From Patescibacteria group bacterium (GTDB lineage: Bacteria > Patescibacteriota > Minisyncoccia > Phycocordibacterales > Phycocordibacteraceae), in contig JBBTWA010000048.1 in NCBI GenBank assembly GCA_038063025.1, positions 1 to 31,441 on the forward strand: DNA of 31,441 nt, written 5' to 3'. Position 1 is the first letter of the stretch; each line of letters opens with the position of its first letter. Shown here one piece after another: positions 7,373-31,328 of this stretch. A model generated the notes under the pieces. The model searched no databases. It worked only from the letters and a program-made list of their open reading frames with translations, and was not told the DNA's origin. Both the position numbers and the translations under genes were made by a program.

Positions 7373-8263
7373 ATGCCAAAAGTTTTCATAGGTATGCCTG
7401 TATACAATGGCGAACGTTTCCTCAAAGAAGCGATTGATTCCCTGCGCGCACAGACATTCACTGACTGGAAACTCCTTATTTCGGACGATGCCTCGACGGA
7501 TACGACATCCGTGATTTGTGAAGAATATGTGAAGAAAGATCAACGCATAGCCTACGTCCGGCAGGAGAAAAATATCGGAATGTTCCCCAACTTTAAATTC
7601 CTTCTCGACAAAGCCGATGGCGAGTATTTCATGTGGACCGCGCAGGATGATATTCGCGAGAAAGATTATCTAAAAATCTGTATGGAGCATCTCGAACGAA
7701 ACAAAAACGTCGGATTCGCAACTACCCGCACCGCAGGAATAGACTCATTTGGTAAGACGCTGATTAAGGAGACAGAACTGACTCGTCTCTCAGGAAAACC
7801 TGGGATGCTAAGTGTCGCTCGCTATGTTCTTCAGCCAGAAATTCTCGGTAAATGTAACCTCATGTATGGACTCTTCAGAACGATCGCCGCTAGAGAAACA
7901 TGGCGAGCGTATCCACAAAGAAATGTTTGGGGGCAAGATTATATGTTTTCTCTCGCTCTTGTAAGTCGATTCGAGATTTATGTCGACCCGCGGTACTTTT
8001 TTAAGAAAAGACATGGTGGATATTCAAGTCCTGGTGCACTTACAAACGATGCAAAAGAAAATCCCAAGAAACTTGAATACAAGAACCCAAAAAATCACAT
8101 ATTCCCTTTTGGGAGATTCAACAAATATTTTACAGGGCACCTTGAAGCACTTTCTGGCACTCCTTATCGCCCGCTTGCGGCAGTGTTGCTTCTTGTTCGT
8201 TTACCCCGATCATTCTTCCTGCATTTGAAAGAGAGGAATTACAAGAAATTTATAATTAGGTAG
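7373..8263 (+). CDS. GT2 family glycosyltransferase
   Basis: IGMPVYNGERFL, ISDDASTD, NIG..PNF, YFMWTAQDD. Confidence 0.9.
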   Translation: MPKVFIGMPVYNGERFLKEAIDSLRAQTFTDWKLLISDDASTDTTSVICEEYVKKDQRIAYVRQEKNIGMFPNFKFLLDKADGEYFMWTAQDDIREKDYLKICMEHLERNKNVGFATTRTAGIDSFGKTLIKETELTRLSGKPGMLSVARYVLQPEILGKCNLMYGLFRTIAARETWRAYPQRNVWGQDYMFSLALVSRFEIYVDPRYFFKKRHGGYSSPGALTNDAKENPKKLEYKNPKNHIFPFGRFNKYFTGHLEALSGTPYRPLAAVLLLVRLPRSFFLHLKERNYKKFIIR

Positions 8264-28535: not shown

Positions 28536-29696
28536 TTAGTGTATCAAGAGACGACTCAGATCCTCGAATACACGAGTCGGCATATCACCAACTTTGGCGA
28601 GATGAGCGCGAGCGACGGTCTCGGCACGGATGGGAAGCTCTAGGCGTACTCGCGTATCTTCTATGAATCCGACAATGCCGAGCGAGAGCGCAGTCGGGTC
28701 GTCCACTGGCACAGAGAGAACGTCTTCGTAACCCTTGAATACTTCGCCAACGATGCCGACGTCAGTTGTGATGATGGGCACCCTCGCGAGTGCGGCTTCA
28801 ATCAGCGTTCTGCCGTAGCCTTCATACGCGCTCGCTTGAATGAATGCGTTCGCGCTCCCCATGAGAGCTCTGGCGTCAGGTCTCTCCCCGAGGAATATAA
28901 CTCTGTCTGCGAGCCCGAGGTGGCGCGCCATTCTTTCCAATCGCCTTCGCTCGCTACCAGAACCGACGATAAAGAGGCCTACCATCGGATACTGCTTGGC
29001 GACAAGCGCGAGCGCCGTGAGGATGTCTTCTATGCGCTTTTCGGGCTCTAAGCGCCCAACAGAGATGAGAGAGAAGGTAAACGGGTGTTCTGGCAGTCGT
29101 ATGGGCTCTGGCACGGTAGAATCAACGGCTACAGGGATAACAGACGGCTCGGGAATTATGGAGCCATAGCGGGCTACAAGCGACTTCTTCACACGCTCTG
29201 AGACGACGCGGATGCCGTCTGCACGAGGCAGTACTCTGTCGGCGATTCGTCGTCGCCAGCGATTCAGGAGTGGCATTCGCACGCGCGGGCTCCTCCAATT
29301 ACCGCTTTTTATAAACCATGGGGAGAGAAAATCTGTATGCACTTGGATATGCAGTTTGGGTCTTGGTGCTTGGATTTTGGATATTGCACGAAGGGCTGCG
29401 AGCCCGTGCTCAAAGGGGTCCTGCGCCGAGACGATTTCAATGCCGTATTGAAGAATAAGCCAGTGCGCTCGCTCCGCGAGCGCACGAACACGGAATATCT
29501 TCCACGCATGCACCGGATGCAAAAAAAGATTTCCGTCCTGTTCTTCTCTCGCGTCTTTACTTGCAGAAGAAACAATGTGCAACTCTCCTGCCTGCGCAGG
29601 CAGGCCTATAGCCGCCGCATACGCGCGCATACGCGCGCGCGCGGCGCTGGCCGCATCAAATATCGTAGGGTCGTTTGAAACAAAGAGGACTTTCAT
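28536..29696 (-). CDS. GT4 glycosyltransferase
   Basis: MKVLFVSND start (29696 preferred over 29768), VGRLEPEKR, VGSG, EGYGRTLIEAA (EX7E), TTDVG. Confidence 0.92.
   Translation of the reverse strand: MKVLFVSNDPTIFDAASAARARMRAYAAAIGLPAQAGELHIVSSASKDAREEQDGNLFLHPVHAWKIFRVRALAERAHWLILQYGIEIVSAQDPFEHGLAALRAISKIQAPRPKLHIQVHTDFLSPWFIKSGNWRSPRVRMPLLNRWRRRIADRVLPRADGIRVVSERVKKSLVARYGSIIPEPSVIPVAVDSTVPEPIRLPEHPFTFSLISVGRLEPEKRIEDILTALALVAKQYPMVGLFIVGSGSERRRLERMARHLGLADRVIFLGERPDARALMGSANAFIQASAYEGYGRTLIEAALARVPIITTDVGIVGEVFKGYEDVLSVPVDDPTALSLGIVGFIEDTRVRLELPIRAETVARAHLAKVGDMPTRVFEDLSRLLIH
29587..29604. repeat. Perfect 18-bp palindrome CCTGCCTGCGCAGGCAGG inside the GT4 CDS
   Basis: The sequence equals its own reverse complement; it encodes the LPAQAG segment. 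Confidence 0.9.
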
Positions 29697-29698
29697 AT
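29692..29698. repeat. 7-bp direct repeat TTCATAT, left copy (right copy at 30275-30281), flanking dinJ-yafQ
   Basis: Identical 7-mers at both boundaries of the toxin-antitoxin cassette. Confidence 0.6.
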
Positions 29699-29967
29699 TA
29701 TTTAAAAAGATCAGGGTGGGTCCCTGTTCTTGCGACAAATACTGTTTCCGGTGTAAGTGCATACACAAGAAGCCAATCTGATTCCAAATGACACTCCCAA
29801 TATCCTAGATACTCGCCTTGTAGCTTATGTGCACGATAACGATTGGGCAGATATCCTTTTATGGAAAGGAGCGTTACCGCATTAATAAGTTTCTTAACAC
29901 TTCTTCCTCGGCGTGTCATGCGCGCTTGGTCTTTTTTGAGCGCAGGCAGATACACTATGTCGCGCAT
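29698..29967 (-). CDS. yafQ: YafQ-family type II toxin (ribosome-dependent mRNA interferase)
   Basis: 89 aa; KKD, HKLQG, WECHLESDWLLVY, RTGTHPDLF are YafQ motifs. Confidence 0.92.
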   Translation of the reverse strand: MRDIVYLPALKKDQARMTRRGRSVKKLINAVTLLSIKGYLPNRYRAHKLQGEYLGYWECHLESDWLLVYALTPETVFVARTGTHPDLFK

Positions 29968-29972
29968 GATGA

Positions 29973-30245
29973 TTATGCAGTCTTGGAAACTTTTCGCATC
30001 TCTTTAATGAAGTCGTTCAGAGAGACGCGGGCACCCTCACCGTGCTTCATGGCGCGGATTGCTGTACGCGTCTCGGCATTTGGCACATGAAGAGAAAATG
30101 GTATTCCCTTGTCACTCACAATACGTCTATAAAATACGTTAATCGCTTCTGAAGGGGATATGCCAATCTTAGACAGCACCGTTTCAGCCTTCTCTTTTAT
30201 TGAAGGCTGTATACGGGCGCGCACTAAAGCAGTTTTTGTAGTCAT
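29973..30245 (-). CDS. dinJ: RelB/DinJ-family antitoxin (ribbon-helix-helix)
   Basis: VRARI...K..AE.VL..IG.S.SEAI..F...I....GIPF...PNAET..A; directly upstream of yafQ. ATG at 30245 preferred over 30272. Confidence 0.92.
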   Translation of the reverse strand: MTTKTALVRARIQPSIKEKAETVLSKIGISPSEAINVFYRRIVSDKGIPFSLHVPNAETRTAIRAMKHGEGARVSLNDFIKEMRKVSKTA

Positions 30246-30251
30246 ATTAGG

Positions 30252-30273
30252 ATTGTAGCACATGTGTGCCACA
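30252..30273 (-). promoter_or_regulatory. Leaderless extended -10 promoter (TGCTACAAT) overlapped by an imperfect palindromic operator
   Basis: TGCTACAAT at 30260-30252 lies 6 nt before the dinJ ATG; palindrome TGTaGCACAtgTGTGCcACA at 30254-30273 (16/20 symmetric). Confidence 0.65.
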
Positions 30274-30275
30274 GT

Positions 30276-31313
30276 TCATATATGCATTTCCTCGGCGAGG
30301 CGCCGCGCAAGTACGGAAAGCGTGTGTGCATCTATCGTCTTCGCCTGCAATTCGCGGACATGCGCATTCCGTTCTTCTTCGGAGAACGCGAGCGACTTCT
30401 CCAGATGATTCGCCAGGTCGTCTGTGTCACTATCTCTATATGCGAATTCAGGACCGGCAATTTCTTTCATGTCGGCGCTCGAAAAGAGCGGGAGACATCC
30501 GCAAGCGATAGATTTGAAAAGCGATTTATCAAGCATCCCGCTTTTCCCGCAGTTCACATATATCGTGTGCGAACGATAGTAGCGATAAGTGTCTGTCGCC
30601 GGCACCGGACCGACGAAAGTAACTTTATCTGAAAGTCCTAGCTCTACTGCGCGTTCTTCAACTTCTTTTGGAAACGATGAACTTTGGTCCTTCGGACCGC
30701 CGACAAAGGTGGCAGTAAACATAATTCCATTTTCTGCTATTTTCCCCAGCGCTTCCACAACAAGGTCCGGACGCTTTGATTTATCAAATCTGCCGAGAAA
30801 GAGGACCGAGCGCGGTTTTCGCTCTACCGGAATATCCAAGCGGCATGAGTCGACATCAACACCGACCGGCATCTGCACTGCTTGGGAATATTTTGACGTG
30901 TAAGACGATTTGGACGTATAAAATACTTTATCGCAGAAGAGCGCGGCGATATCGGTAAGAATATTTCCATCATAGTGATTGCGCCACATGTACACTCGCT
31001 TTCCGAGAAGCTTGAAAAGCCATCCTGCAACCAGCAGGTATTCCTGATTCATGTGCACTAGAACCGCATCATACTCGTTACGGCGCGTCCACGTCAGGCC
31101 AATGGCTCGAAATGCCGTGCGGAACCTAGCGCGATATCCCCACGGGCGAAGCGGAATAACTGTTATGTTCTCCGGTAGCTCATATTCGCCAATCCGAAGT
31201 GCAAAAATCGTAATGTGCTCAAAATGTTGAGAGAGCTCAACTATCCAGCTATGGAACCTGCCAAGCGTTGAGTCCTTACGGTCAACGGTCTGCATGAATA
31301 TAAGAAGACGCAT
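30276..31313 (-). CDS. GT4 glycosyltransferase
   Basis: MRLLIF.Q.VD..D..LG.F..W, VHMN.EY, LFLGRFDKSKRP, FVGG, GMLDKSLFKSIACG. ATG at 31313 preferred over the TTG at 31322. Confidence 0.88.
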   Translation of the reverse strand: MRLLIFMQTVDRKDSTLGRFHSWIVELSQHFEHITIFALRIGEYELPENITVIPLRPWGYRARFRTAFRAIGLTWTRRNEYDAVLVHMNQEYLLVAGWLFKLLGKRVYMWRNHYDGNILTDIAALFCDKVFYTSKSSYTSKYSQAVQMPVGVDVDSCRLDIPVERKPRSVLFLGRFDKSKRPDLVVEALGKIAENGIMFTATFVGGPKDQSSSFPKEVEERAVELGLSDKVTFVGPVPATDTYRYYRSHTIYVNCGKSGMLDKSLFKSIACGCLPLFSSADMKEIAGPEFAYRDSDTDDLANHLEKSLAFSEEERNAHVRELQAKTIDAHTLSVLARRLAEEMHI

Positions 31314-31328
31314 AATATACAACTAATA

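Follow-up and report, generated by a model that had tools for sequence, protein, structure and literature searches.

An in-frame 18-bp palindrome in a glycosyltransferase gene of a Patescibacteria bacterium, probably one copy of a spreading miniature insertion element

We analysed a stretch of 31,441 nucleotides from a Patescibacteria group bacterium (assembly GCA_038063025.1, contig JBBTWA010000048.1), hereafter called the window, in which the perfect palindrome CCTGCCTGCGCAGGCAGG lies at positions 29587-29604, within a gene of glycosyltransferase family 4 (GT4). The 18-bp palindrome is probably one copy of a dispersed and proliferating GC-rich miniature palindromic insertion element that spreads by copy-and-insert, in the manner of repetitive extragenic palindromic (REP) sequences or Rickettsia palindromic elements (RPEs). 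The descriptive part of this reading is secure: the palindrome is a member of a family, is in frame and is tolerated in a surface loop. Both its sequence and its coordinates, as given in the initial annotation of the window, proved exact on direct reading.

The arms of CCTGCCTGCGCAGGCAGG consist of tandem CCTG and CAGG units, and the symmetry ends at the flanks, with a t before and a c after the palindrome. As a single strand it forms a hairpin whose stem has 7 bp and whose loop is GCGC (fold energy -6.5 kcal/mol). Any palindrome of nine plus nine bases is expected by chance 0.12 times per 31 kb (31441/4^9), in line with the earlier estimate of about 0.1, while the pattern of CCTGCCTGCGCAGGCAGG itself, with up to three mismatches allowed, occurred at one site in the window versus 0.01 expected from shuffles. 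The length of the 18-mer is a multiple of three, its sequence is identical on both strands, and it has no stop codon in any phase. Hence, any insertion of it remains in frame, and only the phase matters; the alternative phases would encode PACAGR or CLRRQ.

The GT4 gene was compared with its orthologues in 29 other genomes of the same genus, mostly at 67-81% protein identity, by aligning both proteins and codons. None of the 29 orthologues contains LPAQAG; they read ...YAAAIG-ELHIVS... (ATA GGN GAG). The extra 18 nt, an exact in-frame insertion, occur only in the window's genome (G000) among the 30 aligned. On the minus strand the window reads ATA GGC CTG CCT GCG CAG GCA GGA GAG (I-G-L-P-A-Q-A-G-E), precisely as had been annotated, and the orthologues bear out the claim that removal of the 18 bp keeps the frame (I-G-E). 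The boundary of the insertion can slide by up to 2 nt, GG being common to flank and element.

The host protein has both domains expected of a GT4 enzyme, PF13439 (Glyco_transf_4, E = 4e-12) in its N-terminal and PF00534 (Glycos_transf_1, E = 1e-30) in its C-terminal part. Its open reading frame (ORF) is intact, and invariant residues including E292 and E300 are kept in a 16-sequence alignment. An AlphaFold2 model based on 16 orthologues (pLDDT 87, pTM 0.85) consists of two alternating helix/strand halves, as such enzymes should show. In the model, residues 31-37 (GLPAQAG) form the loop that connects helix 18-30 to strand 38-44, and the insert is thereby predicted to occupy the alpha1-beta2 surface loop of the enzyme. 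The likeliest effect on the host is a neutral extra loop; no host function is implied. Two of the orthologues (L028 of genome G007 and L039 of G047) have lineage-specific inserts of their own, of 12 and about 20 residues, in the loop after YGSR, and the DNA inserted there contains short inverted repeats, as judged by eye.

Contigs from public groundwater metagenomes (runs X4, X7 and X9) served as an independent check. Near-identical contigs in runs X4 and X7 bear the palindrome. Hence, the insertion is not an assembly artefact. In run X9, from a different study, a contig of about 90% identity omits exactly 18 nt at 29587, and further, more distant strains have the empty ...GELH... junction in loose-end sequences. 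Contigs of the distant strains stop aligning at the edge of the palindrome, and coverage gaps at this point were excluded as evidence; the empty allele is documented by a single contig that spans the site with an 18-nt gap, and by the loose ends reading ...GELH.... The insertion in the GT4 gene is thus a real one, which took place recently relative to the age of the genus and is polymorphic in natural populations. One aquifer contains filled and empty alleles side by side, and such insertions would therefore be very fine strain markers. One contig of run X7 has three more bases at window positions 29594-29595, so that its variant of the palindrome measures 21 nt and stays in frame.

The initial annotation had reported the palindrome as the only copy seen, which is correct for the window, with its single match, but not for the genome. 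What decides the question of chance is recurrence: in the G000 assembly (516,631 bp in 99 contigs, 85% complete), the exact 18-mer is present in four copies versus 7.5e-6 expected. A 20-mer form, CCTGCCTGCCGGCAGGCAGG, in which the centre CG is replaced by CCGG, is present in two exact copies. In total, G000 contains nine copies (six perfect and three decayed), and shuffled genomes contain none. The arms CCTGCCTG and CAGGCAGG are constant throughout the family and the centre is variable, with CG yielding the 18-mer and CCGG the 20-mer. Every copy in G000 lies within or at the end of a gene and encodes LPAQAG or LPAGRQ. The initial annotation had named LPAGRQ-like inserts in CPR proteins; this form is real and corresponds to the 20-mer, found in RecJ, TatD and ribosomal protein S10 of G000. 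The features are detailed in Table 1.

Table 1. Location of the palindrome and its host gene in the window, other copies of the family in G000, and transposase-like genes of G000 (REP-associated tyrosine transposase, RAYT)
Feature	Location	Strand	Element or product	Basis or comparison with orthologues
Inserted element	29587..29604	.	18-bp perfect palindrome CCTGCCTGCGCAGGCAGG	read directly
Host gene, GT4-family glycosyltransferase	28536..29696	-	386 aa + stop	translation, Pfam, alignment, model
Six extra codons CTG CCT GCG CAG GCA GGA	29586..29603	-	LPAQAG, residues 32-37	codon alignment, 29 orthologues
RecJ	C84		20-mer + one G	clean +21 nt
TatD	C24		decayed 20-mer	clean +21 nt
Unnamed protein, last residues	C54		18-mer	clean +18 nt, C-terminus
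GatA	C88		18-mer	net +15 nt: 18 in, one codon lost
DprA	C7		18-mer	18 nt of variable linker replaced, net 0
Ribosomal protein S10, N-terminal extension	C65		20-mer	region too variable to judge
RAYT-like genes, G000 (loci L393-L397)	C76:7667-8341, C93:13388-14047, C85:20857-21477, C19:765-1439, C11:258-965, C53:1989-2660			

Two of these sites are occupied in other genomes as well. At the codon position of the GatA N-terminus where G000 has the 18-mer, two other genomes carry a 20-mer or a decayed 20-mer (L081 of G045 and L085 of G024). The three carriers are not sisters in a GatA tree from which the N-terminus was omitted: G000 groups with G078 (support 96/92), G045 with G073 (100/100), and G024 with G011 and G054 (94/88). 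A decayed copy is found at the same position of the DprA linker in G006 (L051), and the closest relative is without a copy. Such same-site copies reflect either insertion hot spots or the spread of filled alleles by recombination.

We then considered the phase of the copies, assigning each to the longest open frame, without gene calls. Across 14 genomes of the genus and the order, 31 of the 40 distinct copies were located in ORFs of at least 150 amino acids, and 26 of these 31 were in the LPAQAG/LPAGRQ phase (P = 1e-8 versus one third). The test for frame bias suggested in the initial annotation thus revealed a strong bias. Outside the Candidate Phyla Radiation (CPR), the copies were mostly intergenic (in short ORFs) and had no phase preference. 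Intergenic copies exist, and all copies use identical codons; the copied unit is therefore DNA rather than a peptide motif. Insertions appear to pass through selection for tolerant loops and a benign phase.

Genomes were searched for the pattern CCTGCCTG-N(2-4)-CAGGCAGG, with the reversed sequence as a control. These genomes are incomplete metagenome bins, and the counts include related genomes that are not independent. The pattern was found in 13 of the 41 relatives, in 17 of the 81 genomes of the genus (0-16 copies each) and in 99 of 401 genomes drawn from across the phylum (0-25 copies each). In contrast, the reversed control gave one match in one genome of the genus and none in the 401 phylum genomes. 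The over-representation that a mobile repeat family would predict was thus confirmed, both within G000 and across the CPR. One centre variant dominated in each genome (chi-square P = 4e-5): the 18-mer accounted for 6/6 copies in G009, 5/5 in G019, 0/7 in G001 and 2/15 in G045. Such a genome-specific variant is expected for amplification from resident copies. Copy number and dominant variant also differed among closely related genomes.

When each prokaryotic species was represented by one genome (596 Gb in all), the scan gave at least 120 loci. The taxa among the matches listed are Patescibacteria, Bacteroidota (including cultured isolates), Omnitrophota, Planctomycetota, Gammaproteobacteria, Acidobacteriota and a Woesearchaeote. 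The raw cross-phylum count means little, because about 400 chance matches to this loose pattern are expected in 596 Gb; the over-abundance of the centres CCGG and CG is the only part that can be interpreted. Among the matches listed, 70 of the 126 had the centre CCGG and 13 had CG, with the exact 20-mer expected 0.5 times; the centre variants seen were CG, CCG, CGG, CCGG, CTG and CAG. The share of CCGG among the matches listed, which come from many phyla, is beyond chance. On phage contigs, 93 loci carry the palindrome, some of them with many decayed copies between genes. The viral loci L342, L338 and L326 each have a dozen or more decayed copies, and L355:3501-4117, also viral, repeats in tandem every 21 nt and includes the arm GGCAGGCAGG.

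The junctions of the copies were variable. The target was unchanged in the GT4 gene and in the C54 protein, one G was gained with the 20-mer in RecJ and TatD, 3 nt were lost in GatA, and 18 nt were replaced in DprA. A fixed target sequence or target-site duplication was sought at the junctions and not found; there was only a weak flank bias, with C at the outward +1 position in 45% of the genus copies and A depleted. The clean sites were preceded by AGG in three cases and by GCG in three, for which we offer no explanation.

We propose that the element would multiply within genomes by copy-and-insert, probably via a single-stranded DNA hairpin processed in trans by a nuclease or transposase, and that selection would then retain the copies in tolerant loops and a benign phase. 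The leading candidate agent is a RAYT-type HUH/Y1 enzyme, a kind abundant in G000, although another sequence-specific enzyme is also considered. The six Y1_Tnp/RAYT-like genes of G000 encode proteins of about 220 amino acids with the HUH motif NHFHLL and a Y..NP motif. Their Pfam scores are above cut-off, and their best NCBIfam match, below cut-off, is the REP-associated tyrosine transposase. Such genes were found in 47 of the 81 genomes of the genus. Several of those in G000 are bracketed by their own palindromes, such as TACAAGGTTcAACCTTGTA on both sides of the C93 gene, and 18 of the 20 RAYT-like genes fetched from the genus are flanked by a near-perfect palindrome of their own, different each time. 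These gene-specific flanking palindromes of 19-35 nt give the loci a REPtron-like arrangement. Carriers of the CCTGCC palindrome made up 16 of the 47 genomes with Y1 genes versus one of the 34 without (P = 6e-4). HUH enzymes are plausible agents.

Several observations weigh against the reading as a copy-and-insert element. The search for RAYT-like genes used PF01797 on the 81 genus genomes and on five phylum genomes with many copies, and a home-made hidden Markov model of the RAYT-like G000 proteins on 120 loci from genomes and 93 from viruses. By coordinates, none of the approximately 170 RAYT-like matches in the genus was near a CCTGCC palindrome. The palindrome was likewise absent from the 20 RAYT-like loci fetched from the genus and from 10 such loci in the five high-copy genomes. 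G359, the richest genome (25 copies, 79% complete), had no PF01797 match, and a RAYT-like ORF was present within 2 kb at only one of the 120 listed loci of other genomes and at none of the 93 viral loci. Phylogeny confounds the link between carriers and Y1 genes: when the comparison is confined to the close clade, the numbers are 10/23 versus 0/6 (P = 0.07). Furthermore, classical REPs have a GT[AG]G or CGTC tag that is missing from this family, and the non-uniform junctions (0, +1, -3 and -18 nt of target) fit imprecise joining and transposition with later selection equally well. The same-site copies of GatA and DprA in non-sister genomes could mean homologous recombination and not new insertions. 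Finally, that the insert is read through as LPAQAG is assumed from the predicted translation. The initial annotation had spoken of a mobile or nuclease-seeded repeat and had considered linkage to a transposase; the former stands as deduced from the insertion pattern, whereas no linked agent was found for the CCTGCC family in the genus, in the high-copy genomes or at the other loci. Pairs of viral palindromes about 656 nt apart were considered as a REPtron and rejected, as they were intergenic hairpins after ordinary phage genes, in the same phage sampled twice.

G000 also contains other dispersed hairpin families that are inserted in frame; the invasion of coding loops by miniature palindromes is therefore a general feature of this genome. 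A GTAG 'double-foot' family, ATGTAGGACGT-ggt/acc-ACGTCCTACAT, has 12 copies in G000, all in long ORFs, where they read VGR(G/T)TSY. Two of them are lineage-specific insertions in the alanyl-tRNA synthetase gene (C18:7597-7623 and 7874-7904, L400), of which one is unique to G000 and one is common only to G070.

The main rival explanation is the capture of filler DNA at DNA breaks, the 'nuclease-seeded' alternative, in which a self-complementary oligonucleotide or hairpin of 18-20 nt is ligated by end-joining-like repair. Such a molecule might, for instance, be left behind as a by-product by a phage or a defence nuclease; no transposase would be involved, and in-frame outcomes alone would survive. 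The heterogeneous junctions in GT4, C54, RecJ, TatD, GatA and DprA would suit this explanation, as would the lack of a fixed target-site duplication, the weak flank preference and the many copies on phage contigs, which are dense in some. However, the dominance of one variant per genome points to copying from resident copies, there is no known source of such an oligonucleotide, and the replacement of linker DNA in DprA may be an effect of the alignment. We therefore regard filler capture as unlikely. The palindrome might also be a footprint or 'solo-TIR' remnant, that is, two fused terminal inverted repeats (TIRs) of a larger transposon that was excised or lost its interior. Constant arms around a centre of varying length are what a variable fusion point predicts, yet the copies of any one genome are uniform in their centre, and the search for a larger element with the ends CCTGCCTG...CAGGCAGG gave none. 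Solo left half-sites in G000 numbered three versus about eight expected by chance, and the solo half-sites in 2.36 Mb of fetched loci were decayed palindromes; in neither data set did pairs of solo half-sites bound a unit that could be a parent element. A remnant of this kind is very improbable.

We give just as little credence to a binding site of a dimeric DNA-binding protein (parS, an operator or a restriction/modification target) that is kept by selection. Such a site would account for the perfect dyad symmetry, the identical sequence across phyla and the few copies per genome. Against this, the palindrome arises by clean insertions of 18 or 21 nt into unrelated genes and not by point mutation, it is absent from about 75% of the phylum genomes and from most close relatives, its position relative to genes is inconsistent, and decayed copies persist. 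The least probable explanation, which we can practically dismiss, is chance, a technical artefact (assembly chimera or adapter) or selection on the peptide LPAQAG. A single 18-bp palindrome in 31 kb is fairly probable by chance, and most carriers are metagenome-assembled, but the nine copies in G000 versus none in shuffled genomes, the contigs from multiple samples and the exact empty allele argue otherwise. The frame bias and the decayed copies point to an evolutionary history, and there are cultured isolates among the carriers. Selection on the peptide is at odds with the identical codons throughout and with the intergenic copies.

The copy-and-insert element can be compared with several known systems. 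RPEs are in the order of 100 bp or more, several times the length of the 18-21-nt element described here. They are in-frame palindromic insertions in protein-coding genes (Di Nocera et al. 2013, PMC3733652). The CCTGCC family is similar in that its palindromes lie in frame in genes, including housekeeping genes, of a bacterium with a small genome, and add extra peptide in tolerant regions; compared with their orthologues, the GT4, RecJ, TatD and C54 proteins have clean in-frame insertions, according to their predicted translation. Unlike RPEs, the element is an 18-21-nt perfect palindrome of an apparently unrelated family. Moreover, RPEs belong to one genus, whereas the CCTGCC family is present in a quarter of the sampled phylum genomes, in other phyla and in phages.

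With REPs and REPINs the family shares the short hairpin repeat, the dispersal (nine copies in 517 kb) and the genome-specific variants. Intragenic in-frame copies are established for GTAG and CGTC REPs (PMC3733652), and both in-frame REPs inside tnpA genes and 'double-foot' REPs have been described (Quentin et al. 2018, PMC6006769). At 18-20 nt, the element is at or below the lower limit of REP length (about 20-40 nt), and it starts with CCTG and ends with CAGG instead of bearing a GT[AG]G/CGTC tag. REPs are mainly extragenic and high in copy number, whereas most copies of the present family in the genus and order are in long ORFs and genomes have 0-25 copies. In contrast to a REPtron, none of the six RAYT-like genes of G000 or the 20 others of the genus is flanked by the CCTGCC palindrome. 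In this respect the family resembles the CGTC REPs that 'apparently lack a dedicated transposase' (PMC3733652).

Miniature inverted-repeat transposable elements (MITEs) typically leave a target-site duplication. They measure 70-300 bp, with terminal repeats of 15-30 bp (PMC3733652). The CCTGCC element resembles them in being non-autonomous and dispersed and in having inverted repeats. It differs by its 18-20 bp without an internal segment, by the lack of a consistent duplication (0 or 1 nt, or small target deletions) and by the lack of a detected parent element. Hence, the family is set apart from the known systems by its size, perfect symmetry, missing tag, missing linked transposase and cross-phylum spread. 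A literature search for the exact 18-mer, the 20-mer and 'LPAGRQ' gave no match, and a search on in-frame palindromic insertions in the CPR gave nothing relevant.

New in the present work are a natural empty allele, a controlled phylum-wide frequency and the genome-specific variants, as well as a negative REPtron test in high-copy genomes and the finding that the RAYT-like genes of the genus each have a different cognate palindrome. If the copy-and-insert reading is true, selfish repeats still colonise streamlined and gene-dense genomes that have hardly any intergenic space, and these repeats are small and 'codon-safe' enough to reside within essential genes. Such insertions would be a concrete source of lineage-specific loops in CPR proteins, with a bearing on alignment, structure prediction and annotation. 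A sequence of 18-20 nt that is letter-identical across phyla requires a sequence-specific agent, and an insertion chemistry of a new type, with a very small recognition unit, might come to light once this agent is identified. A bolder possibility, which we put forward as speculative, is that CCTGCCTG-(CG/CCGG)-CAGGCAGG is the smallest mobile DNA yet seen: a coding-neutral 'nano-element' of 18-20 nt in many bacterial phyla, DPANN archaea and phages, which would be moved without a cis-linked RAYT, by a broadly distributed or phage-borne enzyme acting in trans or by an undescribed repair-based route, and which would regularly add loops to CPR proteins.

Immediately upstream of the GT4 gene, positions 29698-30272 on the minus strand encode a YafQ/RelE-type toxin (89 amino acids, PF15738) and a RelB/DinJ antitoxin (99 amino acids, PF04221). 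This toxin-antitoxin pair sits between the GT4 gene and a second glycosyltransferase-like ORF at 30276-31322.
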